Positions 13,896 through 64,000 of a stretch of DNA of 64,000 nt are shown here, piece by piece. The notes below the pieces were generated by a model. It had not been told where the DNA came from. It saw only the letters and a list, made by a program, of their open reading frames with translations, and did no database searches. The DNA lies in the IMG/VR virus record IMGVR_UViG_3300032132_000748; one strand, written 5' to 3'. The stretch is from a virus (lineage: Duplodnaviria > Caudoviricetes). How positions within the stretch are numbered: position 1 is the stretch's first letter; each line of letters begins with the position of its first letter. A program made the position numbers and the translations under genes.

Positions 13896-13911
13896 TGTTG
13901 TTTTCTCCAAT

Positions 13912-13952
13912 AAAAAAAGAGCATGTAGTAGGCTCTTCCCACTTCATGCTCT
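13912..13952 (-). terminator. Intrinsic terminator (attenuator-like) in the 5' leader of the capsid operon
   Basis: AGAGCAUG-A-AGUGGG-AAGAG-CCUACU-A-CAUGCUCU followed by a U run. Confidence 0.75.
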
Positions 13953-14026
13953 GTACTTCAGTCGCAAGATTATTTTATTTCTTTACCATCAAGACTCCGC
14001 ATGAACGGTTGTTCTTAACTTCCTCA

Positions 14027-14056
14027 ATCATAGTATAAGACGTAGTATCGTGTCAA
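14027..14056 (-). promoter_or_regulatory. Sigma70-type promoter for the capsid operon
   Basis: TTGACA-18 nt-TATGAT with upstream A tracts. Confidence 0.7.
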
Positions 14057-14081
14057 CACTTTTTTTGAGTTTTTTTTACAT

Positions 14082-14116
14082 AAAAAAAGGGCGGCGAATT
14101 AACACCGCCCTTTTTT
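14082..14116. terminator. Bidirectional intrinsic terminator
   Basis: A7-GGGCGG...CCGCCC-T6. Confidence 0.85.
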
Positions 14117-14131
14117 ATAGAAAACTAAGGC

Positions 14132-16376: not shown

Positions 16377-16592
16377 TTATCTATTAAGTAATTTGTAAGC
16401 TACTACTAGTATAAATAAAGTACCTAAAAGCCCAAATGATTTTTTAGTTTCAGTGACTCTTTTGGCCTCTTCAGAGCCAAGCTGCCACCCATCTAGAGCT
16501 GCGTGTCTAGCATGAATTCGTTGTTCCGGTTTAGCCTTCAAGCCCATACCCAGAGATAAATTATCTAAGTTTCCAAACATATTACCTCGCAT
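16377..16592 (-). CDS. Small membrane protein (structural block)
   Basis: C-terminal TM helix, LG motifs. Confidence 0.6.
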   Translation of the reverse strand: MRGNMFGNLDNLSLGMGLKAKPEQRIHARHAALDGWQLGSEEAKRVTETKKSFGLLGTLFILVVAYKLLNR

Positions 16593-16938
16593 GTTTTAGC
16601 CTCTTCAGCTTTTTAGCCATCATGGCTATTTTTTTCTTTTGTTGATCTTGTTTATATAGCAATAAAGCAACACCTAATAATAGCAAAAGTATCACACCTA
16701 TAGTCAACATTTTCTTATTCTGGAGTAAACCAGAAAATTGCCCCAACCCTGCTAAGGTGTTAGGGCTTTTAAAAACATTTATAATGGGTGTTGGTGCTTG
16801 TTGCGGCACTACAGGACCCGTTCTTTGTTTTGAAACTTTATTTCCCAAGGCTTTCATTTCTTTGAGAGCCTTGATCATTTCAGGATGTTTACTTGGATCT
16901 TCTCCCCCAAACATGGGTTGAAATGGGAAATTTTTCAT
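16582..16938 (-). CDS. Membrane protein with TM helix and basic tail
   Basis: LAGLGQF motif, TM helix, Lys-rich C-terminus. Confidence 0.7.
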   Translation of the reverse strand: MKNFPFQPMFGGEDPSKHPEMIKALKEMKALGNKVSKQRTGPVVPQQAPTPIINVFKSPNTLAGLGQFSGLLQNKKMLTIGVILLLLLGVALLLYKQDQQKKKIAMMAKKLKRLKHAR

Positions 16939-16943: not shown

Positions 16944-17984
16944 TTATTTACGCTTCCTGCGGCGCTTATTTCTCTTAGCGGCAGCGGCAACTTTTTGTTT
17001 GTTCTTATACCACCAGATAACACCGACAATAGCAAGACCTGCTGCAGCAAAACCAATATACTTGGTTGCGCCACCGCCATGGAAGTCTCCTAGACCGGCA
17101 AGACCTTGACTCTTGTTGATATTTGAAAGAAGTTTTTTGCCTAAGGCCATATCCTTCTCGGCTTTAATCTGAGCTTTTTCACCCATGCCAAGCTTGGCCC
17201 CAACAGCACCTACTGCTTTATTAAGCATAGCACCAAAACCACCTGTTTTTGGAAGTGATGGGTTTATTAGCCAGCCAATGTTACTTTCTATTTCGGCACG
17301 CTGTAGATCTAAATACCGCATATTAGTTTTCTTACGTCGTTTGAGCATTTCAGTTGCGAGATTATAATAATCTTGTTTAACACTCATTGGAGTATCGTCT
17401 CCTACAACAGCTACTGCTTTTGCGAGAGCCTTAATTAATCCGGTTTCAGTATTAGATTTTGAAGCTTTGTGGAAATAGGTGTGAAAACTTTCAAGAGGTG
17501 TGTCTCCTAGACCACCATAACCGTCAAAAGCATCGTCATCATCGTCATCATCGTCGTCAATGCCTGCTTCTTTTGCAGTTCTAGAAATCATAGCAGACCC
17601 CATACCTTCGTAACCTGCGAAAGCGTCGTCCTGCGTTCCTGCGAAAGCGTCGTCTTCTATTCCGCCGAAGCTCATACCTTCAGCGCCAGCCATGTTCATG
17701 TCTGGACCTTCAATGGAGTAGCTGTTTTTCTGAGCCAGCCTAGACAACGCTTTGGTTCCTAGGTTACCACCGCTGGTTAAGGACTGTTCCATTTCTTGCA
17801 AATAATCTGCATAGGGCTCATATCCTGCGAGTCCCTGCAATCCTGCAGGAAGTCTATTACTGTTTTGTTCGGCGATACGGGCGATGTTGTTGGTGGTTTG
17901 CTTTTGCCCAGTTACAGCAGAACCAAACCCTTCACCCATTTGATATTCAGCAAAGCTGTCACTGTCTGATCTATTATAGGCCAT
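16944..17984 (-). CDS. GLG-motif-rich membrane protein with acidic linkers and basic tail
   Basis: Many xG(L/M)G / (F/L)AGY motifs, C-terminal TM helix then KRNKRRRKRK. Confidence 0.8.
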   Translation of the reverse strand: MAYNRSDSDSFAEYQMGEGFGSAVTGQKQTTNNIARIAEQNSNRLPAGLQGLAGYEPYADYLQEMEQSLTSGGNLGTKALSRLAQKNSYSIEGPDMNMAGAEGMSFGGIEDDAFAGTQDDAFAGYEGMGSAMISRTAKEAGIDDDDDDDDDAFDGYGGLGDTPLESFHTYFHKASKSNTETGLIKALAKAVAVVGDDTPMSVKQDYYNLATEMLKRRKKTNMRYLDLQRAEIESNIGWLINPSLPKTGGFGAMLNKAVGAVGAKLGMGEKAQIKAEKDMALGKKLLSNINKSQGLAGLGDFHGGGATKYIGFAAAGLAIVGVIWWYKNKQKVAAAAKRNKRRRKRK

Positions 17985-17986: not shown

Positions 17987-18712
17987 TTACTCCTTAGTTT
18001 TCCTTGATTTTATCAAATAATATATTGCGGTTGCTATTATTATACCGAAAATTAAATTTGAATGTGAGTGGCTGGAATCTTCAAAAGTTCCATCCAAGTT
18101 AAATATTTTTTTTGTTGCATACTTAGGCGCTTCCCAGCCCATTTTAGCTCCCGGAACAGAGCCATCCAAACCAATCCACTTATTGTTGATTTTAGTTTGG
18201 ATATAAATATGTGAATAATCTTCCTTGTCTTTATAGTTATTTCCAATAATGACAATTCTTACCGGGTGTCCGATGGACTGTAATAATGCTCCTGTTAGGA
18301 TGACAAAATCATCGCAGTCTGCAGCTTTATTATGTCTGCGCAATAGTTCTCTAGCGCGGTGTACTGTTTCAACTCTGTGAATATCCTTAGTATAGCGCAG
18401 TCTTCTTACGACAAAATTATAAACAGCCTTTACTTCTTTTTTATAATCCTTTTCTGGAATATATTGCGTTATTTTTTCTGCGAGAGTTCGGATAACCATA
18501 TCCTTTTTACCCTCATCAATAAGCTTTTTAATTACCTCAACAGACTCATAGGTAGCGCGGCTACTCTCAGAGAGTTTGACGTGATAAGTTTTCATATCTT
18601 CTTTGGGCAAAAACTTATCAAGCCATGATGCTATACGCGCATATTCAGCATCGTAATCATCCACGTCTGGATTGATATCGCCAATGAATCTAGGTAACTT
18701 ATTTTGAGACAT
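17987..18712 (-). CDS. Transglutaminase-like cysteine protease with C-terminal membrane anchor
   Basis: ADCDD (Cys), YSHIY (His), WIGLDG (Asp) triad; C-terminal TM. Confidence 0.85.
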   Translation of the reverse strand: MSQNKLPRFIGDINPDVDDYDAEYARIASWLDKFLPKEDMKTYHVKLSESSRATYESVEVIKKLIDEGKKDMVIRTLAEKITQYIPEKDYKKEVKAVYNFVVRRLRYTKDIHRVETVHRARELLRRHNKAADCDDFVILTGALLQSIGHPVRIVIIGNNYKDKEDYSHIYIQTKINNKWIGLDGSVPGAKMGWEAPKYATKKIFNLDGTFEDSSHSHSNLIFGIIIATAIYYLIKSRKTKE

Positions 18713-19110: not shown

Positions 19111-21912
19111 TTATTTCTCCTTTGTGGTTGTGGTTTTCTTAGCTCTCTTACGAGGTTTTTTTGGCTCAGCCTCTACCTTAGCTTCTTTAGCTGGGGCCTT
19201 TTTCTTAGCTGCTGGCTTCTTAGCTGCTGGCTTCTTAGCCTTTGGCTTTTCCGCAGGTGCTTCGGCAACAGGCTCTGGTTCGGGCTCTTTAGTTGGTTCG
19301 ACAGCTTCCGGGTTAGCCATAACAGCAAGCATCTTATCCATCCATTCGATGGTAGGGGCTTGCATGAAGAAAGAGCAGAACTCTTCGTCAAACATTGTTT
19401 GAAGGAGAGGGAATAGTTGTCCTACAACGACTTCTGAACTTTGTCCTTCTTCTTGAAGGAAGGCAACAATAGGTACCGAAAGTCTGACTTTTGCTTCTTC
19501 AGCCGCCTGTGCTGGAGTAACTTCACCACTCTCAATCGCTAATTTTACGTATTGGAAGAAATCAGCAACCCGAGGGATCTCTTGCATAGGATCTATGCCA
19601 TAGAAATCATCTAGATTCTCTTCGTAATCATCCTCTTGAGTCTCCTCCTCATAAATCTCTTCCTCAACTTCATATTCTTCTTCCTCAACTTTTTGTTTTG
19701 GTTGGGGAACAACTGAAGGTGCTGGAGTTGCTGGTGTTGGGTTAACAACTCTTCTTTGTGCTGGTTGGGGTGGTGCGGGTATTTGCTGACGCATACCGCC
19801 CCCACCACCCATTCCTAGAATTTGTGCTAGAAGGGGTCCCCCATCAGTGAGAATCTTCTTAAGAGCACCCATCATACCGCCGGAATCATCATCATCTTCG
19901 ACTTTAAAGTTGAGATCATTTACCATATCTATCTGCAACTTACGCTGCAAATATTCCTTAATGGCGCTATCGAAGGGGTCTTCACCCTTTTTAGATTCAA
20001 GATTTGACAATTCATGCTTCATCTTAGACATCTGCATAGCAGTTCCGTGACGAATCTTTTCTAGTTCCATCTGCGCTTGCGTTTGGAGCATCTTAGATTC
20101 GCTATCACTAGTCATCTTAGCGATAGCCATTTCCATCTGTAGCTGTGATTCTCTTGTGCCGTAGTTATTGTTATAGATTTGCTCTAACAATTTATGCTCA
20201 ACACCAGTTCTTTGAGTATCCATTCCTCGCATCTTTTCATTGATTTCCATCTCTTTAAGACGCATCTCATCTTTCCACTCCATCTCTTTGCGACGCAGCT
20301 CTTCATCACGAAGTCTCATTTGTTCACGGAATTGTCGTTCTTCCTGAACCATTCTTTCACGATGTTCTCGTTCTGAACGACGAGCCTCTTCATCTCTTCT
20401 TCGTTGCTCCTCTCGCAATTTTTCTTCTCTTTCACGAGTTTCAATACGAGCCTTTTCCTCTTTTTCTCGGGATTCTCTGCGAGCTTGTTCTTCGCGAACA
20501 CGCATCTCTTCCCGCATTTTATCGTATTCTAATCGAAGACGATGTTCGGTATCGCTTGACTCTCTATGCTTTCCTTCAAGGGTTTCTCTCATCTGCGTAA
20601 GCATTGCTTGGTGTTGTTCCTGAGCCATCCTTTGTTGTTGCAAGAATCGTTCTTCCATCTTTGATTGATAGTCGAGCATTTCTCTTCTATTTAACTCTCT
20701 GTCTTTTCTTTCTTTCTCAGAGTGATCTTCTTTAGATTTATCCGTTATACGAACAAGATCCTGCATACCTTGCATAAGGCCGACCATCTCTTTATTCATA
20801 GAGCTGAATTGTCCAGCACTCGCGCTATCTCTATTACTCTTATTATCAAGCCAGTTAACAATTACCGGGGCTACCGCAGTTATAACTTCAGCATTTAAAA
20901 ATGATTCTGGTTTTTTGTTCATGCTGTTTGCCATAAGAGATATAGTGTCTGTTAGTTTTCCTAATTTTGAGTCGAGTTTATTAGTAATCTTATCTTCCAA
21001 TCCTCTCAACTCACCCTTAACCTCATCCTGCGGATCTCTTCTAAATGAAGATTGTCCATAAGGTGGGCTAAATCCGTGAGGAGGAGGGAAAGATCCCCCA
21101 CCATAAGGAGACGGGAAGGGTGATGAAAACCCGGAAGGACGTAAAGGTCTTCTGGGAGTAGGATCAAATGAATCGTCATCATCCCAACCATCGTCATCGT
21201 CATCGTCATCGCTTACTGTAGGGGCTGAAATTGCCGGTGTTGGGGCTACAGGTTCGGGCTGTGCTATTTGTATTGGGTCTTCTTCCGGCACCTCTCTAGG
21301 TATTTTAGGTAATCCAGAAATTTCGAAAGTTTTCGACTTTACATATTTTCCTGTTCCATCAACAATTCGAAGCTGGTATTTACCTCCGCCATATTTTTGG
21401 CCTACATTTTCAATAATGTCAGGAATGGTTGTTGGAAGATGGAAGGTGTCGAGGTAGCCGTTTATTTTAGTACCTTTGATCATTTGCGGTTCTAGCCGCA
21501 TTACCATTAGTTTATACTCAGTTAAACTAGAGGTATTCATCTCTTTCCATATATTGTTTAATTGTTCTGCGTGTGGGTCATCCTCACTTGCTAAAACAGA
21601 TCCCATAATCTTTTTTGTTCCTGACATACCAGTCTCCTTCGAGTTAGTTACTTTTTGTTTCGGTAATTTTGCTGTTGGTAAAGTTGCCGATGTTATTTTC
21701 TTTTTCTTAGCTGCAGTAGGGGTTAGTTTAATCCCACTGTCTACTAAATCATTAATTGATTCGTGAGTATCCTCACCTAATTTTGAGAAGTCTATTCCCA
21801 GCCCATCATCTATATCTGATAGAGAATCGAAAAAACTATCATCCATGATGTTTCCACCAGATTGGATATTCTTAGTTTTCCCTTTTGGGGCATCTAGCTC
21901 TTTTTCAGCCAT
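19111..21912 (-). CDS. Large coiled-coil, low-complexity protein (933 aa)
   Basis: E/R/K/M-rich coiled coil, acidic and Pro-rich linkers, KKPAA histone-like tail. Confidence 0.88.
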   Translation of the reverse strand: MAEKELDAPKGKTKNIQSGGNIMDDSFFDSLSDIDDGLGIDFSKLGEDTHESINDLVDSGIKLTPTAAKKKKITSATLPTAKLPKQKVTNSKETGMSGTKKIMGSVLASEDDPHAEQLNNIWKEMNTSSLTEYKLMVMRLEPQMIKGTKINGYLDTFHLPTTIPDIIENVGQKYGGGKYQLRIVDGTGKYVKSKTFEISGLPKIPREVPEEDPIQIAQPEPVAPTPAISAPTVSDDDDDDDGWDDDDSFDPTPRRPLRPSGFSSPFPSPYGGGSFPPPHGFSPPYGQSSFRRDPQDEVKGELRGLEDKITNKLDSKLGKLTDTISLMANSMNKKPESFLNAEVITAVAPVIVNWLDNKSNRDSASAGQFSSMNKEMVGLMQGMQDLVRITDKSKEDHSEKERKDRELNRREMLDYQSKMEERFLQQQRMAQEQHQAMLTQMRETLEGKHRESSDTEHRLRLEYDKMREEMRVREEQARRESREKEEKARIETREREEKLREEQRRRDEEARRSEREHRERMVQEERQFREQMRLRDEELRRKEMEWKDEMRLKEMEINEKMRGMDTQRTGVEHKLLEQIYNNNYGTRESQLQMEMAIAKMTSDSESKMLQTQAQMELEKIRHGTAMQMSKMKHELSNLESKKGEDPFDSAIKEYLQRKLQIDMVNDLNFKVEDDDDSGGMMGALKKILTDGGPLLAQILGMGGGGGMRQQIPAPPQPAQRRVVNPTPATPAPSVVPQPKQKVEEEEYEVEEEIYEEETQEDDYEENLDDFYGIDPMQEIPRVADFFQYVKLAIESGEVTPAQAAEEAKVRLSVPIVAFLQEEGQSSEVVVGQLFPLLQTMFDEEFCSFFMQAPTIEWMDKMLAVMANPEAVEPTKEPEPEPVAEAPAEKPKAKKPAAKKPAAKKKAPAKEAKVEAEPKKPRKRAKKTTTTKEK

Positions 21913-34694: not shown

Positions 34695-35384
34695 ATGCCC
34701 TTAACCGCTAGTGAACACCAAAAAATTGCAGCTCTACAGCAAATAGCTAATCTAGTTGGGCAAGCACAGAGTGTTGCAGGTAATCCCAACGTTTTAAATA
34801 ACGTAATAAATAATACACTTCCTCTTATTTCTCAATGGGAGAGAAGCGATCCTGAGTTTCAAGAATTAGCAATTCAATTACGGCGTGCTCGGGTTGATAA
34901 AGCTCCACATAACCTAATGAACATAGCTGGGCAAGCTCAGCGAATGATCGCTATGGTTCGTGGCGTCTCTCCTGTGCGTCGCGATTGGGAGGGTGACCCG
35001 GTTGTATGGGATCCTATTCGTGGCAGCGTGAGTAGCCCTATATTCGACCCTAACGAACCAATCACACCTAACACTCACATGGGCTGGCGCGGGTCACAAA
35101 AACATCCCTGGGGTAAGGCTTTCCCTACTAAAAATATGATTGAAGGTCTTGGCGACTATAACGGAGTTATTGGAACTGCCGGAAGTTTGTTCGGAACTCT
35201 TTTCAAAGTAATTGCCCTCTGTTCTGGTTCTGTATTAGCTATTCACGGTTATGAGCGAAATAATCGCTCTCTACCTATGGGTGTTGTTTGGGGTGTCCTA
35301 GGTGGCGCTGCCTGGCCCGTAGGGCTTTTCCTGATGTATCAGCAAGGTTTTGCCGGTAATACTCCAGATTTGTCCATGGCATAG
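34695..35384 (+). CDS. Membrane protein with EGLGDY motif
   Basis: Two C-terminal TM helices; GGAG RBS. Confidence 0.75.
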   Translation: MPLTASEHQKIAALQQIANLVGQAQSVAGNPNVLNNVINNTLPLISQWERSDPEFQELAIQLRRARVDKAPHNLMNIAGQAQRMIAMVRGVSPVRRDWEGDPVVWDPIRGSVSSPIFDPNEPITPNTHMGWRGSQKHPWGKAFPTKNMIEGLGDYNGVIGTAGSLFGTLFKVIALCSGSVLAIHGYERNNRSLPMGVVWGVLGGAAWPVGLFLMYQQGFAGNTPDLSMA

Positions 35385-35416
35385 ACTACGTAGTTTCAAT
35401 TGCTTATCATCCGAGA

Positions 35417-35887
35417 ATGAATATTCAAATATCTATAGATGCCGCCAGAGCAAATTTTCTTCTAATTACCAAACACTTAGAAGATATTCCCAAAGCAAAA
35501 CAAGGCCAAGTTTTGGAATACTTATCTTTCGGCCTTAAACAACTAGATCATTTAGAAGAGCTTGTTGGATCAAAACCACGAATGGTTAGAGAAAATTTAC
35601 CTTCTAATGAAGAAGTTATGGGTCAGATATGGAATGACATGAATACCACATCCATGTCTGATTATAAAATCATGCTAATGAGGCTTGAACCACATATGAT
35701 GGCGGGTAACAAAATAAATGGTTATCTTGATACACACCATCTTCCTACAACTATTCCAGATATTATAGAGAAGACCGGTATGAAATATGGTGGTGGGAAG
35801 TATCAACTTCGTATTGTTGATGATTCTGGAAAATACGTCAAATCAAAAACTTTTGAAATCTCAGGACTTCCCAAGCTCCCCGAATAA
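35417..35887 (+). CDS. Hypothetical protein carrying a copy of an 85-aa domain from 19111..21912
   Basis: 66/85 identical residues by manual alignment. Confidence 0.8.
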   Translation: MNIQISIDAARANFLLITKHLEDIPKAKQGQVLEYLSFGLKQLDHLEELVGSKPRMVRENLPSNEEVMGQIWNDMNTTSMSDYKIMLMRLEPHMMAGNKINGYLDTHHLPTTIPDIIEKTGMKYGGGKYQLRIVDDSGKYVKSKTFEISGLPKLPE

Positions 35888-36037
35888 TTTAGGGAGTTCT
35901 TCAAAGGTACAACCTCGACAGCCTTTGCCTGCAGAACAATGTTCCTGAAGCTCTTCGAGGGTGGTCAGGGATTTATCTAAAATTATCTGGATAATTTCTT
36001 CTGACGTAACTTGAAAACAATGACAAATGTAGTCCAT
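35861..36037 (-). CDS. BFD-like [2Fe-2S]-binding protein (58 aa)
   Basis: Not in track: MDYICHCFQVT...TLEELQ..CSAGKGCRGC; directly downstream of iscS. Confidence 0.8.
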   Translation of the reverse strand: MDYICHCFQVTSEEIIQIILDKSLTTLEELQEHCSAGKGCRGCTFEELPKLFGELGKS

Positions 36038-36044
36038 GATGATC

Positions 36045-37160
36045 CTATAGTGTTTTTACCGCGGATATAATTCTTTGCGTAGCTAATAAAATATCATTAG
36101 GCTTGGTAAATCTTCCAGCAGAAATTCTCAAAGTATTTCTAGCGTAGCTTGCAGGCAAACCCATACTCAGCAAAACCTTTGAAGGCGTAGCAGAAGCACA
36201 TCCGCATGCAGAAGCTGTCGAAGCAGCCACTCCCCGTAGATTTCTAATAACTAGTTTTTCATATGGAAATGAAATATTACTTATAACACCGTTCCTTGGA
36301 GCGTCCGACCCATTGATAATTACTTTGGGAATTTTTTTGAGCTGATCTTCCATATGTTTCATTGCTTTACTGATTGGGTTGATCCAAGAAGTATCTTTTA
36401 CGGCAATTTCTAATGCGCGAGCAAAAGCAACTATTAAGGGAACAGCCGTTGTGCCGGAACGGATACCAAATTCCTGACCGCCACCCACTAAAAGCGGACT
36501 TACCTTAAGATCAGGACGAATCCACAAACAACCCACACCTTTTGGCGCGTTAAACTTATGGCCACTAAATGAAGCCATATCTACATATTTTAAAACGTTC
36601 AAAGGTATCTTACCTACCGCTTGAACAGCATCAGTATGTAATAACATGTTATAGCGAGTAGCTATATCCGATATTTTCTTTAATGGCTGAACTACCCCCG
36701 TTTCGTTGTTAACTAACATCACACTAATTAAACTAGCATTTGAATGTCTTGCTAGAGATTCCAGATGATCTACATCAATTAAACCATTTGGAAGAGTTTT
36801 GATTTTTAAAACTTTAATACCCCTATTAAGAATAAATTTTGTAGATTCCTCGATACAAGCGTGTTCGATGGAGCTAACTATGAGAGCACAGTCTTGCTTC
36901 TGCAAGCAGCTTATACCTCGTAGCGCAAGGTTATTAGCCTCTGTCGCACCACTGGTGAAGATGATCCCCTTCGGGGAAAGCCCTAGTAAATCACCTACTC
37001 GTTGTCGAGCAGTCTCAAGAGCTTGTTTCGAAGCTCTTCCATAAGAATGTGTTGTGTTACTGCAATTACCCCAGAATTTCTGTTCGGCAGCCATGTAAAT
37101 TTTCAAGACTTCCGGATGAAGAGGGGTTGCCGCAGCATTATCTAGATATATCTCATCCAT
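36045..37160 (-). CDS. iscS: Cysteine desulfurase (IscS/NifS family)
   Basis: YLDNAAATP, FTSGATEANN, VNNETG, HTDAVQ, SGHKF..PKG.G, GGGQE.G.RSGT, STASAC. Confidence 0.93.
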   Translation of the reverse strand: MDEIYLDNAAATPLHPEVLKIYMAAEQKFWGNCSNTTHSYGRASKQALETARQRVGDLLGLSPKGIIFTSGATEANNLALRGISCLQKQDCALIVSSIEHACIEESTKFILNRGIKVLKIKTLPNGLIDVDHLESLARHSNASLISVMLVNNETGVVQPLKKISDIATRYNMLLHTDAVQAVGKIPLNVLKYVDMASFSGHKFNAPKGVGCLWIRPDLKVSPLLVGGGQEFGIRSGTTAVPLIVAFARALEIAVKDTSWINPISKAMKHMEDQLKKIPKVIINGSDAPRNGVISNISFPYEKLVIRNLRGVAASTASACGCASATPSKVLLSMGLPASYARNTLRISAGRFTKPNDILLATQRIISAVKTL

Positions 37161-37203
37161 AACTATATAATATCATCTTTTACGAACTTGCTATAATAGT
37201 ATC

Positions 37204-38907
37204 GTGTATGTAGACATTCCCGAAGAGCTAACTTCAGAGTCTTTAGATGATTGGAGTGATGAGGTCAAAGCAGAATTAGATTTATGGATCTTCTCTTTGA
37301 CACTGCATCGAAATGGAGATATTAAATTAGATTCCATAATAGTTAAACCAGATGAGTTGAAACAAGGGAAAGGCACTAAAGCGATGAACCAGCTCATCGA
37401 ATTAGCTGATAGACATCAAAGAAAACTCTGGTTGTCTCCAGGAAAAAAGGACCCTTATCACAAAACAACAAGTCGAGCCAGGCTAGTTAGGTTTTACAAA
37501 AGGTTCGGATTTATAGAGAATAAAGGGAGAAATTTTGGAGGTCATGGAGCTATGTTTAGAAAACCCCATGGAAGAAGAAATCCAGTAGCTCCTTTACCTT
37601 CTGGATTTCAAGATTCTATAGCACTAATGACTTTGAAAGAATTCCTTGATTACAGAAACCCTCGGGGTAAGTGGCATGATGAGGAATCTTACAATTTCGA
37701 CTTAGAAGATATGAATAGAAACTACAAGATTCAACATCTTGAAGACTATAGAACACGTGAAGTAATATTTAGGACTTACCGGAACGGCGATAGTTATCTT
37801 ATCTACTCTGCTGTTGATAGCAGAGATAGATTTAAACTTGTAGCTATTATATATGAAAATACACTTTATTATGAAAAACCTTCTCTTGTTTGGCGACTAC
37901 CAGGTGGTTATCGAGATTCTAATGACTCTTGGGTATCATTCAACATTTCTGAAAAGAAACGAATAAAGTATCTAGATGAGATGTTAGAACTAATTAACAA
38001 TATCAAGCAGGAAAATCTTGATAGGTACCCTTACCTACACCAAAGAATAAGATTACAGGGAGAGTCTTTTCAGATTAGATTTGAAAAACAGCCAGAGCAT
38101 GATGCCGGAACAATTATAGCTGTCCTAAACTCCGAAGGACAAGCAGTAGCTAAAGCCCAACCAGAGTGGGGCGCAACACTAGTAGTAGTAGCTCAGGAAT
38201 ATCGAGGCAGAGGTTTAGGACCCATCATCAGCCAACTCTGGTATGACTGGAATCCAGGCTACCCATCAGGAGGTTTTACTGGCTCGGGACTAAACAACGC
38301 AACAAGAACTTGGGAGAACGCCGTTCGGTTATACCGATCTAAGGGCTGGTATTCAGAGCTGCTCAAACAAGGACATATATCCAAAGAGCGCCTCAAAGAA
38401 ATTTTTGGAAAATTATCTAAAAAGTCCCCACCTAAAAAAAGAATAATTTCCCAGGAAAAGAAGGTATTAATTTACGTTGAACGGGATACAGAACATGGGC
38501 ATCCTGAATGGGGACCAACTTTTGCTATATACGACGAAGCCTTCCTAACTGAGCCAGATGAAAAACATATCTACGGATTTGGTTTCTTCCGAAATAATCG
38601 CGCTGGAACATATCTCTTTGCGATCGATTACGAAAGAGAGTTCGACAAAATCACTACGTATGTCGCTCTCCAGATAGCGAGAAACAATAATGAGAAAATA
38701 TATGCCGGAAATGATTACGGAGCAGATATATTAGAGCTCTCCAATTTAAATCACGTTCAAGTTGAGGAAGATTATGCATATCTTACAGAAGATGTTCTGA
38801 ACTTAGAACTATTTCGGAATGTAGAACGTAGGCTAAGAAATCTGAAGGATCCTCTGGGAGAAAAATACCATTTATTGCTAGAGATGGCTCATACCAAATG
38901 GTTGTAA
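37204..38907 (+). CDS. Multi-domain protein with two GNAT-like acetyltransferase domains
   Basis: KQGKGT...RLVRFYKRFGF; VAQEYRGRGLG; internal GRRNP. Confidence 0.7.
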   Translation: MYVDIPEELTSESLDDWSDEVKAELDLWIFSLTLHRNGDIKLDSIIVKPDELKQGKGTKAMNQLIELADRHQRKLWLSPGKKDPYHKTTSRARLVRFYKRFGFIENKGRNFGGHGAMFRKPHGRRNPVAPLPSGFQDSIALMTLKEFLDYRNPRGKWHDEESYNFDLEDMNRNYKIQHLEDYRTREVIFRTYRNGDSYLIYSAVDSRDRFKLVAIIYENTLYYEKPSLVWRLPGGYRDSNDSWVSFNISEKKRIKYLDEMLELINNIKQENLDRYPYLHQRIRLQGESFQIRFEKQPEHDAGTIIAVLNSEGQAVAKAQPEWGATLVVVAQEYRGRGLGPIISQLWYDWNPGYPSGGFTGSGLNNATRTWENAVRLYRSKGWYSELLKQGHISKERLKEIFGKLSKKSPPKKRIISQEKKVLIYVERDTEHGHPEWGPTFAIYDEAFLTEPDEKHIYGFGFFRNNRAGTYLFAIDYEREFDKITTYVALQIARNNNEKIYAGNDYGADILELSNLNHVQVEEDYAYLTEDVLNLELFRNVERRLRNLKDPLGEKYHLLLEMAHTKWL

Positions 38908-38970
38908 AATCTGTTAAGGGATACTGAAGTTTAATAATATCCACCCGGATATTATTAATACCCTCCTCGC

Positions 38971-39262
38971 TGACACCAAATATCGAAATTCTGTCTCGGG
39001 ATGCGAGTTTTTATTTAATATGCATATTAAATTAGACAAAACCGAAATTGATTGCAAATAGCCAAATTCTGTTACGGGATGTGAAGGTCTTATAAAAAAA
39101 TTGCCCAGCATTTTTTTAAGACTCCGAATTTACTGTAGACATAGAAATTCTTTCGAATTGATTACAAATATGAAAATCCTATCGCGAGATGGGTGATCTT
39201 ATATTTTATAAGGGATTATAAAATGAAACTGACAACAAATAAGGAAATTCTGTTACAGAATG
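38971..39262. repeat. Four degenerate ~33-bp direct repeats between convergent genes
   Basis: TGAYnnCAAATAnnnAAAT(T/C)CT.....G.GATG starting at 38971, 39049, 39159, 39230. Confidence 0.65.
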
Positions 39263-39288
39263 CCAAAGTTATAAAAAACCGGACCAGT

Positions 39289-40197
39289 TTATAAACTTCG
39301 CGCCCAACCCTTCTCGATCAAAAATTTTACAGAATCTGTTAGCTCTTTTCGATCAGATATTTTTATCCCCGATAAAATAATATCTTCTTTCAAGATATCA
39401 ATTAATTGACGACCAGTCTCGGAGTCCATCAGTTCTTTCATCATGGATACTTCCAGAGCTTTATGTTCTTCCGCTCTTTGCATAGATAATTTTTTCAAAA
39501 CCATTGGTTGTAATATTTCTGGTAACGCATCAAGAGCAGCCATACTAAAAGGTAATCTTCTTAAATCGGGGCCGCCTTGATCGACAATCCAATCATACAT
39601 TGGATCAGCAACTGCTTCATCTATAATGATCTGTGCTTTAGACTGCTCGCCCATCATCGAATATCCGATACATTCTTTTGGGCTCACAGGGATGTCCGAT
39701 ATTGAAGTAAACATCGTTCCATCCATTATGGTAAATACTTCGTAGGCTGAACCTTTTTTAAAGGTGTATTTGTTGTTAGAAGCACTGATGGCTATGTGGG
39801 GGGAGAATTTTTTCTTAAATGATGAAACACTGCTAACACCAGCTCCATAATGCCCGCTTACAAAACCTGTCATTGATCCACTATGTTCGTGGTATTGAAT
39901 ATTTTCATCAGTTGAGCCGAAGTGCTTAAAAATTTCTTTGGCCATTCCTAAAGCATTCGGAGGTTCTGTTGAACCTCCCGAAACACCGTTTGGAAAAAGT
40001 TTGCGACCTTCGGGAGTTTCAAACTGTTTTGTTCCGAATCCCGACACAAAACCTATTTCAATAGTTCCTGTTGCGTATATTTGATTATCATAAACTCCAA
40101 AATTAGAAGTTATTTCGTTATCGGGCCATCGACCTGCCTTATGTCTGTTGGACATAGAGCTAATTGTTGCACGTCTAGTTAAGTTATAATCTACCAT
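39289..40197 (-). CDS. Hypothetical protein
   Basis: 302-aa ORF overlapping the upstream gene end. Confidence 0.75.
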   Translation of the reverse strand: MVDYNLTRRATISSMSNRHKAGRWPDNEITSNFGVYDNQIYATGTIEIGFVSGFGTKQFETPEGRKLFPNGVSGGSTEPPNALGMAKEIFKHFGSTDENIQYHEHSGSMTGFVSGHYGAGVSSVSSFKKKFSPHIAISASNNKYTFKKGSAYEVFTIMDGTMFTSISDIPVSPKECIGYSMMGEQSKAQIIIDEAVADPMYDWIVDQGGPDLRRLPFSMAALDALPEILQPMVLKKLSMQRAEEHKALEVSMMKELMDSETGRQLIDILKEDIILSGIKISDRKELTDSVKFLIEKGWARSL

Positions 40198-40751
40198 TGC
40201 CGGTTACTTTCTAAATAATAATGATTATTTTCTTTTATTGCTCCGGCTCGCTCCCAGGCTTTAGTAGCTCCAGGAGATAGTGACGAAACACTGCTGCTAT
40301 AAATTTCCCCCACTAACTGAGAAATTAATTGTAATATTGCCGGATAAATACCAAATCCATGTAATGAAAGCTGGGCAACTGTAGTGGCCCATCTATCCCT
40401 AAAAAAGGCTCTTCCTGTTCCAAGCCTGTAACCATCTAATGAAATAACCCATAGTAATTTGCTGTAATCTTCATCTGATCTTATGGTCAGCAGTAAATCT
40501 CTGAAGTTAACATTCAAAAGTTCTTCTGGGAGATCCGCTCTATTGCGATATACCCAAGAATTACCTGCTAGGATCTGATTAATAGATAATTTCAGAGAGT
40601 CTAAAAAAATAATTTCAGGAAAGTCTCTAGCTTCTCGTTCCTCTTGATATAAACCATCAGCTCCTGGCCATTTTTTGTCACCAAAAGGTGTGAATTTGTT
40701 CAGCTTATAGTAGTAATGCTTCTCAAAAGTTTTAGGGTTTCGACGCCACAT
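40191..40751 (-). CDS. RRNP-motif protein with GNAT-like C-terminal half
   Basis: MWRRNP; LHGFGIY...SLSPGATKAWER. Confidence 0.6.
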   Translation of the reverse strand: MWRRNPKTFEKHYYYKLNKFTPFGDKKWPGADGLYQEEREARDFPEIIFLDSLKLSINQILAGNSWVYRNRADLPEELLNVNFRDLLLTIRSDEDYSKLLWVISLDGYRLGTGRAFFRDRWATTVAQLSLHGFGIYPAILQLISQLVGEIYSSSVSSLSPGATKAWERAGAIKENNHYYLESNRQW

Positions 40752-40820
40752 GAGTTTATTTTATCAAGTTATTGAAGATATTGGTTTCCCTTATATCCTT
40801 AGCTAGGAGCAAAAATAATT

Positions 40821-42047
40821 ATGCATAGAAAAGATCATCTCCGAGAACTTATCAAAACCGGAAAAAGTCAACAAGAACAAAATGAAGCTCATATCAAAAG
40901 ATATGAAGAAGAATTAAAAGAAATAAAACAAAAGGAGACACGACTCCCCAGCCCAAAGCTAACTGAGCTTCGCCAAACCTTACAGAGAAACCCAGGCTCT
41001 TTTAAAATCCGTCAGGAATTAACAATCCAGGCACTCGAAGAAGAGAACGGAACCTTTGTTGCTTGGCGTGGTGGGGAGGGAACCCCTCCAGAGGCACAGT
41101 TTGTTGAAATCGAGCAACCACTATTTAATTCAGAAAATGTTTTAGATAATCCTCCGATTGTTAAACAACATTTTCACGTTCTCTCTGTATTGGATAATAT
41201 TAATGATTTGAAGGGTTTGTTGGATGTAGTTCAACCGGATTGCATGATTACGCTGCCCCAGCACGATTTGCACTACTTCTCTGAGTTTCAGACGGAACCT
41301 ACTACATATGTAGTAGAAGGATCTGACGTTCCAGTAGAGAATCTAGTTCCTTTTAATCATAAATCGGATAATATATCAGATAAGATTAATTTAGCTGGTG
41401 AAACAGCCGGAGAAACTACCATTGGAGGTAGAACAAAAGGGCTTCTTCAAAGAATTTATCAACCCTTGTATGATACTAATACAGTAGCCACTTCGGGATC
41501 GGGTCAACTAAACTTTTTCCAGGTTCCTTTAGGTGGAAGAATAGCAGGAAGCACTACGCCTAAAACTCAAGTTGATACCAATATGGATCAAGGGGGGAGT
41601 CTTCCTTATCCAAAGAACTTCAAAGTAACTGGAATAAGTGTTATACCGGACGCTTCTGCTAGCTATGAAGACGCAGCAAAGGTGCTTGACGGATCCTGGT
41701 TCCGACTATTTATCGGGACACAGGACTATTACGTGTCTCCTACGCTCCCTCTAGCCTTTGCTCCCGGTAAGCGTAGTCCTGGTATGAGCTTCAGAGTAAA
41801 CAACCCCTTGCGACCCGTTTACTGTTTTCCAGAGCCTATTAGCTTGATTCCCCAGCAAAATTTCCGGGTAGAGCTTAATTTCCCGAAACCTTTTACTAAA
41901 GATAACGCTCTTAGTGAACCTTTACGTATCCGTGTAGTTCTTCATGGATATTTCTATCGAGAAGTTATGGAGATGTTTAAGAGTTTAAAAGCTTTTGATT
42001 ACAGCAGCCAACGTTTAGGTTCCTACGAAGCTGAATCTAAGTTGTAA
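40821..42047 (+). CDS. Chimeric protein: unique N-terminus, third capsid-protein paralogue, C-terminal peptide from the core protein
   Basis: GLLQRIYQPLYDTNTVATSG..QLNFFQVPLGG...TNMDQGGSLPYPKNF...LIPQQNFR; ends YSSQRLGSYEAES. Confidence 0.85.
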   Translation: MHRKDHLRELIKTGKSQQEQNEAHIKRYEEELKEIKQKETRLPSPKLTELRQTLQRNPGSFKIRQELTIQALEEENGTFVAWRGGEGTPPEAQFVEIEQPLFNSENVLDNPPIVKQHFHVLSVLDNINDLKGLLDVVQPDCMITLPQHDLHYFSEFQTEPTTYVVEGSDVPVENLVPFNHKSDNISDKINLAGETAGETTIGGRTKGLLQRIYQPLYDTNTVATSGSGQLNFFQVPLGGRIAGSTTPKTQVDTNMDQGGSLPYPKNFKVTGISVIPDASASYEDAAKVLDGSWFRLFIGTQDYYVSPTLPLAFAPGKRSPGMSFRVNNPLRPVYCFPEPISLIPQQNFRVELNFPKPFTKDNALSEPLRIRVVLHGYFYREVMEMFKSLKAFDYSSQRLGSYEAESKL

Positions 42048-42076
42048 TTCCTAGACATATCTAATATCATTTAGAT

Positions 42077-42667
42077 ATGTCAGACGAAAGATTAAGAAAG
42101 CTAGAGCGGGCGGCCCGAAACGGGGATCCAACCGCTCTAGCTTTGTATATAGCCGGATGCAGAAGAGTGGCTATTAGACCCGAACATGGGCTTGCTTGCC
42201 TCCATATTAGAAATACGATCAGGGCAGTAGACCCTTTAGGAGAAGTTTCTTTTAATCAATTAGGGTTTTGGGTGATCGAAGCTCTTGCTACCGATGTAGC
42301 TTTATATACCGATTGCGATTTTCAAGATTACTGCGCAGAAGATAAAACAGATATTCAGGAGTGGTTTGTATTACCGACACAAGAGGAATTAACTATTCTT
42401 AAAGAGCAACACCGTAACCCATTTTTTAGAAATGAACCTTGGTCACCGGCACTATTACTTCAATATACGGAAGAAAGCAACCAAGATCCGAGAATACATG
42501 TTATACCTCCTGAATGGGATCTTCCGAGGGCTGGGTTACTTAAGGTAGATACTAAGAATACCTACTCGGATATTATTTTAAGAGCTTCTAACCCTCCCCA
42601 TATGTGTTATGGCAATTGCTACTGCCAAGCATGTATTATACATGGGTGCTGTTCCTACGAAGACTAA
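42077..42667 (+). CDS. Hypothetical protein with DERLRKLERAARNGD N-terminus and Cys-rich tail
   Basis: N-terminal motif shared with 33733..34671. Confidence 0.75.
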   Translation: MSDERLRKLERAARNGDPTALALYIAGCRRVAIRPEHGLACLHIRNTIRAVDPLGEVSFNQLGFWVIEALATDVALYTDCDFQDYCAEDKTDIQEWFVLPTQEELTILKEQHRNPFFRNEPWSPALLLQYTEESNQDPRIHVIPPEWDLPRAGLLKVDTKNTYSDIILRASNPPHMCYGNCYCQACIIHGCCSYED

Positions 42668-42720
42668 TCTTTAATTCGGACAAACCTTGCTTAGACCCTT
42701 GTAAACAGTAGCATAAGGCT

Positions 42721-44718
42721 ATGAGTGCAGTAACCCTACACCTAGCAGGTGATAAACTATTAATATCCTTCGATTATAATGAAACAATTGTTTCAAAATT
42801 GAAGAGAATCCCTGGTTGCCGCTGGAAGAAAACCCTAGGTAGGTGGGAAGCCCCTTTAGCAAACTATAGTAGAATCGTTGATTCACTGAATAATGTTATA
42901 GTGTCTACTGCTGTGATGAAACGTCTTGCTGACGAAGCAGCCTTAACACGTAAGGTTGAGATATTAAAAGCAAAAACCTATCATGAACTAGAAGACTACT
43001 CTCCCAAAGTTCCTTTAATGTCCCACCAGAAAAAAGCATTCGAGTTACATCGTATGTTAAAAGGTAGCGGTAACTTCGGGGAAATGGGCTCTGGCAAAAC
43101 GGCATCAGCTATTTGTTCAATTCATTGGCATATAGAGACCGGAAATATCGAAAACGCACTAGTTGTTTGTCCTAAATCAGTTCTCCGGGGCTGGGAAGAA
43201 CAAATTGAGTTCTTTTCTGACCTAAGTTTTATCTCTTTGGTAGGGACTAAACCCGAAAGAATAAGAAAATTAGGACTAAAGAAAGATATTTACCTAATTA
43301 ACTACGCTGGAGCCCGAATTATGGAGGAAGTCCTCCTCGAAAAGGGCTTTAATATGGTAATTACGGACGAAGCTCACCGAATTAAGAACCCACAATCAAA
43401 ACAAAGTAAGGCTTGTTACAACTTAGCAGACAAAGCGGAGTGGAAAATTGCTCTGACGGGCTCCCCTGTATTGAATACAGCACTAGATGCCTTCGGAGTC
43501 ATGCGTTTTATTGATCCAACTGTCTTCGGAGAGAGCTTTTTCGCCTTTCGTAACAAGTATTTTAAGAATGTTGGACCAGAAAACTCACCAATTCAAATTT
43601 ATATACCGCAAGGTGGTGCGGAAAAGGTAATTTCAGACAAGTTAGATACCAGATCGATACGTGTTCTTAAAGATGAGTGTATGGATTTGCCTGTTGCGGT
43701 CCACTTACCTAACAGAATTGTATACTTAAGCCCACAACAAGACCGAGTTTATCGAGATTTGCAAGAAAACTTAGCTGCACAGCTTAGTGAAAACAAATCT
43801 ATTAAAATTAATCACGTATTAACTTTAATGTTGAAGCTTAACCAAATCACTTCTGGTTGGTATAAGGACTCAGATACCGGTGAAATTACACACTTCAAGA
43901 CAAATCCCAAGTTTAATGCCCTAAAAGAGGTAGTAACGGACGCCGGTGAGCAAGCAATTATCATTTGGGCCTACTACAAGGAGGATATGAAGCTAATAAC
44001 TAACTATTACGGACGTTGTCAGAAGTGTAAAGAGTCTGTAAATTTAGTTGGTGGCGAAAAATGTCCCAAATGCCACACTGTAATTAAAAACAGATGTTCA
44101 GAAGTGCAGGGTTCGACTAAAAGAAGAAACGCAGAAATAGCTAGATTCAGATTTACTCCAGAAGAAAGAGCAAAATTACGCGCTAGATTCATAGAAGAGG
44201 GGATGAAAGCGACTGAAATTAGAGATGAACTAGGAGATTTATTAGACGATGGTAGTGAACCCCCACAAAGTAATATATTTGCAGCACAAGTTACCGCAGC
44301 TTCTGAGGGCCTTAACCTTCAACGAAGCACTATGTCCGTCTTTTATAGTCGAAACTGGTCACTAAAAGACTGGGTTCAAGCTCTGGCTAGAAATCACCGT
44401 AAGGGACAAACAAAGAAGGTGACCTACGTTAACCTCGTAGCCCAAATGCAGAGCGGTGACCCTACTGTTGACCAACGTATCGTTGATGCCCTCACTAAAA
44501 AGGAAAATCTCTCTAAAAGGATCAACAAAGACGATATCAAGTTGCTAACTGGAAATTACAAAAAGAAAAATCGGGAAGCTTTTAAGGATATTGTCATTGA
44601 AGAGGAGAAAAAAGAGATGGATCGCCCTAAGCAAGAAGACGACCCATCGGACAACGGCGAAGCCCCTCCTGAGTTTACAGCACCCTCTGAGCCTCCCACA
44701 CAAGGAGGTCTGTTCTAA
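42721..44718 (+). CDS. SNF2-family helicase with N-terminal HARP-like domain and Zn-ribbon insert
   Basis: EMGSGKT, DEAH, LTGSP, EGLNLQ, QA.ARNHR.GQ; CxxC...CxxC insert. Confidence 0.92.
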   Translation: MSAVTLHLAGDKLLISFDYNETIVSKLKRIPGCRWKKTLGRWEAPLANYSRIVDSLNNVIVSTAVMKRLADEAALTRKVEILKAKTYHELEDYSPKVPLMSHQKKAFELHRMLKGSGNFGEMGSGKTASAICSIHWHIETGNIENALVVCPKSVLRGWEEQIEFFSDLSFISLVGTKPERIRKLGLKKDIYLINYAGARIMEEVLLEKGFNMVITDEAHRIKNPQSKQSKACYNLADKAEWKIALTGSPVLNTALDAFGVMRFIDPTVFGESFFAFRNKYFKNVGPENSPIQIYIPQGGAEKVISDKLDTRSIRVLKDECMDLPVAVHLPNRIVYLSPQQDRVYRDLQENLAAQLSENKSIKINHVLTLMLKLNQITSGWYKDSDTGEITHFKTNPKFNALKEVVTDAGEQAIIIWAYYKEDMKLITNYYGRCQKCKESVNLVGGEKCPKCHTVIKNRCSEVQGSTKRRNAEIARFRFTPEERAKLRARFIEEGMKATEIRDELGDLLDDGSEPPQSNIFAAQVTAASEGLNLQRSTMSVFYSRNWSLKDWVQALARNHRKGQTKKVTYVNLVAQMQSGDPTVDQRIVDALTKKENLSKRINKDDIKLLTGNYKKKNREAFKDIVIEEEKKEMDRPKQEDDPSDNGEAPPEFTAPSEPPTQGGLF

Positions 44719-45146
44719 TGAATTGTGGATGTGATTACTGCACAGAAAAGATCTGTGAGCTAGAAGAGTTATTTAAGACTAATAAAAATATCTATAAAAT
44801 CGATATTAGTAGAACGGTAAACGTCACTCTTACCTCAAAAAAGGAATTAACCGAACAAGAACGAAATGAAATATATGAATTAGAAGGTAAAGCCGTCTCA
44901 TATCTATCAATAGACGGCTTAGATTTTCGTCTTAAAGCTCCCCCAAAAAAACCTTTGAGCCGTCTCTATCCTGAGAAACAAATTTCAATAGCAGATTACT
45001 ATAAACATACACCAAAAGGCTGCCTCAGATGCATCAAACTTCTAAGCAGAGGGGCGCAACCTGAGCGACTAGGGACACAAATTTGCGGATGTCTTTGGCA
45101 AATTAACGATGAACAATCAATAATATATAAACGAAAATCAAAATGA
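44718..45146 (+). CDS. Cys-containing hypothetical protein
   Basis: TAATG coupling. Confidence 0.65.
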   Translation: MNCGCDYCTEKICELEELFKTNKNIYKIDISRTVNVTLTSKKELTEQERNEIYELEGKAVSYLSIDGLDFRLKAPPKKPLSRLYPEKQISIADYYKHTPKGCLRCIKLLSRGAQPERLGTQICGCLWQINDEQSIIYKRKSK

Positions 45147-45328
45147 CTGAACAGCTTACCTCCCGAGGCCAAACCCAAGATGGCCTTACCTTTACCTGCC
45201 CCCGCCACGGAAAACAAGGATTCCATTCTATGTCCTGGGCATTACCTGAATACACTGGAATTCAATTAACTTGTGGTTGCTTTTGGCGAGCAAACAAAGA
45301 CGGGTCCTTAACCCATAGAAGAGTATAG
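45143..45328 (+). CDS. Small Zn-binding-like protein
   Basis: CPRHG...CGC; ATGA coupling. Confidence 0.6.
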   Translation: MTEQLTSRGQTQDGLTFTCPRHGKQGFHSMSWALPEYTGIQLTCGCFWRANKDGSLTHRRV

Positions 45329-45633
45329 TGAATAACAAAGAAGAAATTATAGAAGCCTTAATTCACGGACGTTTACGCGAAGTAAATAAGCGTTGGCCTA
45401 AAATTTTTGGGAAAAATAAATTCCAAGAGTTTGAACGATGGATAGCGACCCAAAAAGATGAAGAGCTAATTACAATAACTTTTAATCTAGGCGGTCAAAC
45501 TACCAATAACCAGATGGAAAACTATAGTTGCATCCTTTCCGGCTCACCCGTCTACCAAAATGGATGTATCGAAGTTTCGGGGATGAGTTTTTCACCCTCG
45601 TCGAATTTCCCCTTTGGCTATCTTTTTTCTTAG
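45328..45633 (+). CDS. Hypothetical protein
   Basis: TAGTG coupling. Confidence 0.55.
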   Translation: MNNKEEIIEALIHGRLREVNKRWPKIFGKNKFQEFERWIATQKDEELITITFNLGGQTTNNQMENYSCILSGSPVYQNGCIEVSGMSFSPSSNFPFGYLFS

Positions 45634-45644
45634 AGGATTTTAAA

Positions 45645-45968
45645 ATGATGTGTCCCGAATGCGGAACCCAGGATGCCCAACAATTACTACTAACTATTCG
45701 CTGCTCTAATAATAAATGCAAACACTATGATGTTAAGCACGAAATACAAGTAACTAAGAACCGGCTTGCAGAGGTGGATAAACAAATTACTAGTTTAGAG
45801 AAACAAAAAAAGGTTTTAAAGAGTCATCTCCAAAATCTAGGCGGGTTAGTAGTAGAAGATCCTTTTGATTCAGCCATAAAAGCTTATTTACAAAGAAAAC
45901 TTCAGATAGATATGGTCCAAGAACTTAACGGAGTATTAATAGAGAAATCCATATCTTTCACTTCCTAG
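45645..45968 (+). CDS. Zn-ribbon/coiled-coil protein ending in a peptide copied from 19111..21912
   Basis: GAGGA RBS before ATG 45645; CPECG...C....C; EDPFDSAIKAYLQRKLQIDMV. Confidence 0.75.
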   Translation: MMCPECGTQDAQQLLLTIRCSNNKCKHYDVKHEIQVTKNRLAEVDKQITSLEKQKKVLKSHLQNLGGLVVEDPFDSAIKAYLQRKLQIDMVQELNGVLIEKSISFTS

Positions 45969-54219: not shown

Positions 54220-55016
54220 TTGGTTGACGTAGCCGTATTTAATAATTCTGGGGCCGCTATTCTGACCGGACAAGTTGTTCGTCAGACTGGGTTTGTACAA
54301 CCACAGCAATTGCCGTCCATAGCATTAGCTTCGGCTGCTGTAGTAACAACAGCAACAGTATTCGGTATTGCTACAGAAGTTATTGCAAATAATACTGCCG
54401 GACAGGTTAGAGTCTCTGGATCTTACGGCCCTCTCGACACGTCAACATTTATTGTTGGGGCCAAAGTTTTCCTATCGGATACTCCCGGAGAAATATCCTC
54501 CACACCTGGAACGATTGAATCCGCCATAGGTAACGTTGAGGTAGCAGCTCTTGCGGGCTGTGTCTATATTACATGTATTGCCCCTACTGCGTCCTGTAGC
54601 ACAAGTTCTGGTACTGGAGACGATGGAGCTACTGGCCTACAAGGAGTGACCGGTATTGGAACTGCAGGTAGCGGCGTTGACCAGCTACATATGAATGTTC
54701 TCGGCCCTCTCGAAGCTATACCATCTCTACCTTTTGTCGAAGTAGGTCCTGAAATTTCAGGAACCGCTAATACTTTCGTTATATGGAGAGGAAGAAGACT
54801 GACTCCTGGAACTGCCGGAACAACTACAATACAACTAGAACTAAATGATGTTCCTGTTGTAGGAGCAATCCTTTCATGGACCCCCGCCGATGCAGCCTCC
54901 GCTCTCATGACTGTTGGAATAGCTTTGGTTGTTGCAGTAGGGGATAAAATTAGCTTTAGAATTACATCATTCGAGACAGGTGGGACTAGAGACATAATTA
55001 CGGAGATTAACTCCTA

Positions 55017-55017
<1 letters not shown>
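54220..55017 (+). CDS. Fibre-associated protein with cement-like beta domain and short collagen stretch
   Basis: N-domain homologous to the N-domain of 3188..5059; [10 protein letters not shown]. Confidence 0.75.

Positions 55018-64000
<8,983 letters not shown>

Follow-up and report, generated by a model that had tools for sequence, protein, structure and literature searches.

Accessory genes of an undescribed giant tailless virus carry old, selected copies of pieces of its own morphogenesis proteins

Virion assembly can be inhibited by scaffolding fragments: in phiX174 and P22, isolated binding domains act as dominant negatives, these being laboratory constructs and not natural genes. Short capsid-targeting peptides, such as the T4 CTS and encapsulin cargo peptides, address cargo to the shell; to our knowledge, targeting peptides of this type are not copied from the conserved core of a structural protein. 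Among natural genes, Ccm of SaPIbov5 is a HK97-fold homologue of the capsid protein that cannot replace it and interferes with assembly (PMC5052747, PMC8569155). The chlorovirus PBCV-1, which has a eukaryotic host, encodes MCP variants with a double jelly roll that are seen in virions (PMC9617893). Borgs, archaeal elements of megabase scale, carry several single-jelly-roll capsid-like genes (PMC12660748). Finally, the tail assembly blocker Tab is a virus-encoded prophage defence that blocks virion assembly of rival viruses and comes with a separate anti-Tab (PMC10884400).

The stretch of DNA analysed here (the window) comprises 64,000 nt, and the record carrying its proteins is an 859,269-base contig from a marine metagenome. 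Its source is a very large, undescribed, tailless virus or virus-like element, which encodes small capsid proteins of the single-jelly-roll type and whose host is probably bacterial, judging from gene content and from the Gemmatimonadota bin of a distant small virus. A minus-strand operon encodes, in order, a 933-aa protein, a small coiled coil, a transglutaminase-like protein, membrane proteins, a basic core protein and two capsid proteins. This order is the same in large relatives and is kept in outline in distant small viruses, one of them within a Gemmatimonadota bin, indicating that the parent genes discussed below are morphogenesis genes of one virus lineage. The 933-aa protein (19111..21912, minus strand), near the head of the operon, is probably scaffold-like, given its operon position and coiled-coil character. 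The basic core-like protein is encoded at 12942..13910 (minus strand; likely start ATG 13895), and capsid proteins 1 and 2, which are 85% identical, at 12249..12818 and 11577..12134 (both minus strand). The capsid genes encode 185-189 aa, and the predicted model is a single jelly roll (pLDDT 84), with the FG loop of capsid protein 1 (residues 107-139) at about 12402..12500. The SPV1 capsid (PDB 6oj0) was the top match of this model in both structure searches (Foldseek E 1.2e-3; VIA Z 7.7, rmsd 3.8, 142 aligned, 11-14% identity), HCIV-1, HHIV-2 and P23-77 ranking lower. With a middling Z of 7.7, these matches moderately support an eight-stranded jelly-roll fold nearest to viral capsid proteins. 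Sulfolobus polyhedral virus 1 (SPV1) is a small archaeal virus, in contrast to the 859-kb contig described here. No relatives were found in IMG/VR or among GenBank phages nor, for the capsid, in species genomes; neither parents nor copies could be assigned to a family with Pfam, PHROG or PADLOC, the LmuB and coiled-coil matches from these searches being rejected as weak, and a literature search retrieved no paper on this virus group.

Pieces of these proteins recur in plus-strand accessory genes. The short gene 35417..35887 (156 aa) encodes a segment of about 65 aa, probably helical, followed by a copy (35627..35881, plus strand) of an 85-aa domain of the 933-aa protein (21298..21552). Residues 71-155 of the short protein and 121-205 of the parent are identical at 66 of 85 positions (BLASTP E 2e-45), exactly the count given in the original prediction, with a pS of 0.79-0.80 and a serine codon switch (TCC/AGT). 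The domain ranks first by conservation among the 849 85-aa windows of the parent. Its predicted structure reached a pLDDT of 88; structure searches with this model returned no clear match (Z at most 5.6), which does not by itself imply a new fold, and a beta-grasp guess was unsupported by the structure matches listed. Upstream lies a candidate sigma70-type promoter (35382..35410, plus strand) that matches the consensus at only 9/12 positions and whose -10 box ends 6 nt 5' of the ATG. The -10 box likewise ends 6 nt before the ATG in several other window genes; promoter and terminator counts in the window were the same as in shuffles. A syntenic orthologue of the short gene lies on a Tara scaffold (L024:9486-9947), its N-terminal part being only 26% identical. 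This scaffold carries orthologues of 34695, 35417, 40821 and the SNF2 gene, in conserved order, as well as its own parent gene.

Across the family, about 50 short proteins contain the 85-aa domain, 49 of them with 50% identity or more to the domain of a parent; the search, performed on 50%-identity representatives, recovered 11 parent clusters of nearly full length alongside dozens of short proteins. The short domain proteins inspected on contigs are whole genes located in accessory regions, and others may be contig-edge pieces. Their architectures vary: some have a helical N-terminal part as in 35417..35887, some consist of the domain alone (93-120 aa), three are tandem doubles (P0103, P0104, P0147), 11 bear a CxC...GC tail, two a SPFT tail, and one is fused to a capsid paralogue (P0119). 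We found no sign of a widespread stand-alone cellular domain, the case that had been named as able to overturn the original prediction: a pattern-limited scan of 185,579 species genomes returned two matches to the domain, both single full-length genes, one heading a complete capsid operon and the other adjoining the same protease gene. In addition, every full-length homologue inspected heads the capsid operon of this virus lineage, and in the distant small viruses the domain occurs once, within the full-length gene.

A different part of the 933-aa protein (19909..19983) is found in gene 45645..45968 (plus strand, 107 aa), behind a Cys-rich, zinc-ribbon-like start and a coiled-coil-like middle. 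Residues 71-91 of its product match residues 644-664 of the parent at 20 of 21 positions with 12 synonymous codon differences, both figures holding on recount, and a serine switch (TCA/AGC). The whole 25-aa fragment (45855..45929, plus strand) is identical to its own parent at 22/25 positions and to parents of other lineages at no more than 18/25. Four relatives carry a longer piece of the region, three of the four behind the same Cys-rich start.

The third gene, 40821..42047 (plus strand, 408 aa), comprises an N-terminal region of about 200 aa of no known family, for which searches gave no match, a capsid domain and a tail. The capsid-like part (41430..41969, plus strand; residues 204-382) is 51-53% identical to both capsid proteins. 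What had been described as a whole capsid paralogue is indeed a paralogue, although not quite whole, its FG loop being replaced. The self-search of the window that had been suggested yielded no other comparable fragment, and a capsid profile added a further paralogue, overlooked before, at 2442..3191 (plus strand; HMM iE 4e-39), which is more divergent, has its FG loop deleted and carries a Gly-rich N-extension. Beside about 49 true capsid proteins, the paralogues fall into five or more types, among them one bearing a RING-like insertion; they are scattered and lie far from the morphogenesis operon. The Gly motif of the FG loop is absent in 33/33 aligned paralogues and present in 47/49 true capsid proteins, and a similar Gly motif occurs in the distant small viruses; according to a quick tree, it was probably lost at least twice. 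Paralogues match the capsid consensus at 0.58-0.68 in the CD, EF and GH segments, and at 0.12, 0.13 and 0.26 in FG, DE and HI. By analogy with PBCV-1 (PMC9617893), CD, EF and GH may face inward and the remaining loops outward, which would place the added domains and tails of the paralogues on the presumed membrane side. The 40821 family counts at least ten orthologues sharing the N-terminal region. Window and L024 members of this family share 71% identity in the capsid domain, as against 93% for true capsid proteins when the window is compared with L010 or L017. A domain copy has a capsid paralogue close by in the window, in L024 and in L001/L002, and the two are fused in L008.

As predicted, 40821..42047 ends in a peptide of the core protein. 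The 13-aa tail (42000..42038, plus strand; residues 394-406) is identical at 11/13 positions to residues 262-274 of the core protein (13089..13127), with a serine switch (AGC/TCA), whereas the best 13-mer match in five shuffles of the 72 window proteins was at most 9/13. Among the 40821 orthologues, only the window's copy carries this tail. Another orthologue, P0188, ends with the core peptide lying just upstream of the copied one (shuffle p 0.001, 13 tails tested); either the two peptides were captured in parallel, or they are different parts left over from a single longer capture. Within the tail lies a hydrophobic-Gly-aromatic motif that is repeated in the core protein (6 versus 0.33 expected) and in membrane proteins and occurs once in each of two hydroxylases; this pattern, chosen post hoc after sequence inspection, may be a protease site or a virion label. 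In four genomes, no stretch of the core protein is better conserved than the copied peptide. The proposed reuse of interaction surfaces thus suits two pieces, the 85-aa domain and the core peptide, each the best-conserved stretch of its parent and plausibly an interaction surface; the second fragment of the 933-aa protein fits less well, ranking only in the top 10% of parent windows. Prediction of a complex between the core segment and two capsid subunits scored 0.01, gave no usable model and carries no weight as evidence.

Synonymous sites are saturated or strongly diverged between copies and parents (pS 0.79-0.87, and 0.61 for the 15 codons of the tail), exact DNA matches of a copy to its parent are 8-14 bases at their longest, and each of the three cases shows the serine codon switch that had been announced. 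One Logan contig covers 34500-46500 with zero differences, but is probably from the same sample and so not independent. Between syntenic orthologues, pN/pS is 0.33 for the domain and 0.23 for the capsid part (versus L024, with saturated pS), and 0.20 between L001 and L002; as dS is saturated, these values are upper bounds. Copies evolve faster than the structural genes (60-71% versus 88-93% identity), and between L001 and L002 the short gene is 64% identical, compared to 95-96% for its neighbours (pS 0.75 versus 0.29-0.51). Taken together, these comparisons indicate that the fragments are family-wide, old and under purifying selection, bearing out the prediction of old, selected copies rather than recent duplications and of purifying selection in relatives.

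An alternative source raised in the original prediction, capture from a related virus, is unsupported for the two fragments of the 933-aa protein, because both match the parent of their own genome better than any other. In the tree, the window's domain copy is sister of its own parent (support 100/94), and it shares 6/12 of the residues peculiar to that parent (1.6 expected, P about 0.001); for the 25-aa fragment, the identities given above (22/25 versus at most 18/25) point the same way. We consequently reject capture for these two fragments, a rejection that extends neither to the near-invariant core peptide nor to the capsid paralogue. In the domain, the window's short gene and its syntenic counterpart in L024 share only 60% identity, and each is 66-78% identical to the parents. 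Informative sites group by genome rather than by gene type (4 versus 1 for window/L024; 21 versus 6 in total for six quartets that are not independent). For the short genes with helical N-terminus, one common origin was not rejected (p-AU 0.124). The L020 and L018 copies, assigned to their parents by shared sample alone, track these parents weakly. By these sequence measures, the pieces of the 933-aa protein stay closest to their own genome's parent, either through occasional re-copying of the parent into an old locus or through co-evolution; the data fit both, and since dS is saturated, re-copying can be neither dated nor separated from co-evolution. Neither the protease encoded at 17987..18712 nor any other operon protein was represented by fragments in the 276 kb of loci examined, although this sample is small and biased.

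Accessory genes have thus received pieces of morphogenesis proteins of the same virus; these copies are maintained by purifying selection, recur family-wide in many architectures and keep conserved surfaces while lacking parts constant in the parents, namely the long coiled coil of the scaffold-like protein and the Gly motif of the capsid FG loop. We tentatively propose, at a little under an even chance, that the copies are assembly-incompetent self-mimics, that is, dominant-negative decoys competing for the parents' partners. They would bind capsid subunits, the scaffold, the core or the membrane assembly site, but would be unable to extend the lattice, and would therefore titrate or cap assembly. 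Such titration would adjust when, or how much, the virus itself assembles and would spoil the assembly of co-infecting close kin, whose surfaces are near-identical. Decoys were already envisaged in the original prediction, to which the FG-loop loss in 33/33 paralogues adds support; their function and target are putative. Consistent with decoys, many domain copies hold little beyond the domain, and tandem doubles and a capsid-paralogue fusion exist. Against them, what the 933-aa protein does is itself putative, the virus would suffer from a perfect mimic of itself, and a kept base with varied outer loops also describes functional PBCV-1 capsid variants (PMC9617893). No immunity or timing switch for self-mimics was found.

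Other readings of the same genes have to be weighed. That the copies are debris of neutral or recent duplication in a jumbo genome, or else artefacts of assembly, is very improbable and largely refuted already: jumbo genomes do shuffle modules, and unrelated genes in the window also share C-terminal tags, but high protein identity despite saturated synonymous sites, intact frames, syntenic orthologues, purifying selection, the shortness of exact DNA matches (no more than 14 bases) and a contig spanning the region speak against it. The fragments could also act as address labels, tethering passenger domains to the virion or assembly site, much like the cargo-loading tags first suggested. This would predict own-parent tracking, and the recurrence of the tail motif in the core, membrane proteins and two hydroxylases, together with the adjacent core peptide at the same end of P0188, is in line with it. 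However, many domain copies (93-120 aa) have no passenger or cargo, the N-terminal part of 35417..35887 is poorly kept in its orthologue, and the motif pattern was picked after the sequences had been seen. A cargo-targeting terminal peptide should be conserved among orthologues, and here it is confined to the window's copy, with one orthologue bearing a different core peptide. Tagging, which at best fits the 13-aa tail, is thus quite improbable as a general explanation.

Somewhat less improbable, but still unlikely, is that the capsid paralogues are specialised minor virion parts, variants that occupy particular lattice positions together with local adaptors, in the manner of PBCV-1 and perhaps of Borgs. 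The conserved base and varied outer loops resemble the PBCV-1 variants (PMC9617893), at least ten orthologues of the 40821 family share the N-terminal region, and domain copy and paralogue are co-located or fused. By contrast, the five or more paralogue types are scattered and distant from the morphogenesis operon, the evolutionary rate of paralogues is several times that of the capsid protein, all of them lack a loop motif that even distant viruses conserve, large additions sit on the presumed membrane-facing side, and the 25-aa fragment is left unexplained. Counter-defence is similarly unlikely: copies would act as sponges for factors that recognise conserved structural surfaces, be they host sensors, assembly blockers of host or prophage origin, or hijack proteins of satellites. 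Such sponges would explain self-likeness without a kin target and would fit the fast, patchy evolution, the many small fusion partners and the accessory locations; assembly blockers such as Tab are known (PMC10884400), and small viruses with the same operon are possible parasites. Yet the host, sensor or satellite concerned is hypothetical, a copied trigger surface could fire a sensor instead of blocking it, and word searches of the EVADES preprint found no such class, a result of little weight in either direction. A common function for all three genes is not required: tagging suits the 13-aa tail best, and the variant reading the capsid paralogues.

Returning to the decoy reading, it is possible, although on balance doubtful, that a lineage of megabase-scale tailless viruses keeps a repertoire of decoys derived from its structural proteins against kin, satellites or host sensors, with parent genes re-copied into old accessory loci so that the decoys follow changes in the virus's surfaces. 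If so, viruses would carry natural inhibitors or sponges made from their own assembly surfaces, and conflict among viruses or between virus and host would have a new layer. Whatever their function, the copies mark working interfaces of an uncharacterised giant jelly-roll virus (an indispensable capsid loop, a scaffold domain, a core peptide), making the assembly of this lineage testable with a few small proteins and without a cultured virus.

Among described systems, Ccm shares with the paralogues its homology to the target capsid protein (here 51-53% identity), and the FG-loop loss is suggestive of a Ccm-like inability to replace that protein. However, Ccm is 19% identical to its target and is encoded by a satellite against its helper, whereas the proteins here are jelly rolls, about 52% identical and encoded by the parent's own genome, copies and parents lying on the same contig in the window and, for the domain copy, also in L024; moreover, the copies include non-capsid fragments. 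Decoys would thus work like Ccm without belonging to its satellite-encoded class. Tab is not described as a structural-protein copy in the accessible portion of PMC10884400. In the literature searched, neither a natural self-mimic decoy strategy of prokaryotic viruses nor natural self-fragment decoys were found. The likeness to PBCV-1 lies in several capsid paralogues per giant genome with a conserved base, varied outer loops and N-terminal extensions, the sides being assigned by analogy. As regards one-to-one orthology, ten or more orthologues of 40821 stand beside several other paralogue types. The two systems differ in that the types here, known from genes, are patchy, fast-evolving and accompanied by scaffold-like and core fragments. 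Borgs are alike, by description, in their megabase scale and multiple single-jelly-roll capsid-like genes; the available part of PMC12660748 describes neither lattice-loop loss nor fragment copies of other structural proteins. We conclude that these copies are a real, selected feature of an undescribed giant virus lineage, for which the mechanism is offered as a proposal, and that they are akin to known assembly-interference or capsid-variant strategies.

The C-terminal tail CxC-x8-GC is common to unrelated small proteins encoded on the plus strand of the window, by ORFs starting at 26249, 27368, 48640, 49001, 49523 and 50786. In 11 relatives, this tail is also fused to the 85-aa domain, the piece of the 933-aa parent protein that is copied in 35417..35887. 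A different C-terminal tail, SPFT, is common to three plus-strand ORFs (starts 49897, 51573 and 51899), with 11/13 between two of them, and is also found on two copies of the 85-aa domain in relatives. Within the window, a hydrophobic-Gly-aromatic motif recurs in the basic core-like protein (12942..13910), in membrane proteins and in two hydroxylases, its further carriers being located at 16944..17984, 16582..16938, 34695..35384, 6603..7325 and 7362..8123. The motif may be where the transglutaminase-like protease at 17987..18712 cuts; alternatively, it may serve as a virion label.

The orthologues of 35417 and of the capsid paralogue gene 40821..42047 adjoin in a related Tara scaffold (L024), where the block 35861..40751, comprising a ferredoxin-like ORF, an IscS-like gene and genes for 567-aa, 302-aa and 186-aa proteins, is absent. 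The Cys-rich N-terminal module of gene 45645..45968 is present in two adjacent genes of another relative (L009:52-657 and 681-1115); the parent fragment is found only in the second. In eight window genes (1905, 8165, 29778, 35417, 36045, 37204, 42077 and 46082), exactly 6 nt separate the end of a -10-like hexamer from the start codon, a spacing that suggests leaderless transcripts. A hairpin with a T-run after it (about 13900..13960 in the window, minus strand) is conserved in four genomes (the window, L010, L013 and L017), where it immediately precedes the start of the core gene.

A further capsid paralogue of the window (2442..3191, plus strand) bears a Gly-rich N-terminal extension, has its FG loop deleted and adjoins a collagen-like gene. 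Collagen-like Gly repeats also occur in a plus-strand open reading frame (55011..64000) that has 2996 or more codons and runs past the window end. In two relatives, capsid paralogues carry a RING-like Cys/His insertion (L001:15726-16448 and L002 about 13711-14433), matched by PF14446 in one relative. Both are directly preceded by a Clp ATPase gene, a possible link to disassembly or proteolysis. On a JGI 3300042731 contig, a 376-aa gene, equal in length to P0188, a relative's orthologue of 40821, directly precedes the capsid paralogue P0194; judged by gene length, two paralogue types possibly stand there side by side.

A small-virus version of the window's capsid operon, encoding a 587-aa protein, a protease, a basic core and a jelly-roll capsid (L028:7824-15960), is located on an 80-kb contig in a Gemmatimonadota bin, which offers a clue to the hosts that the wider lineage may infect.
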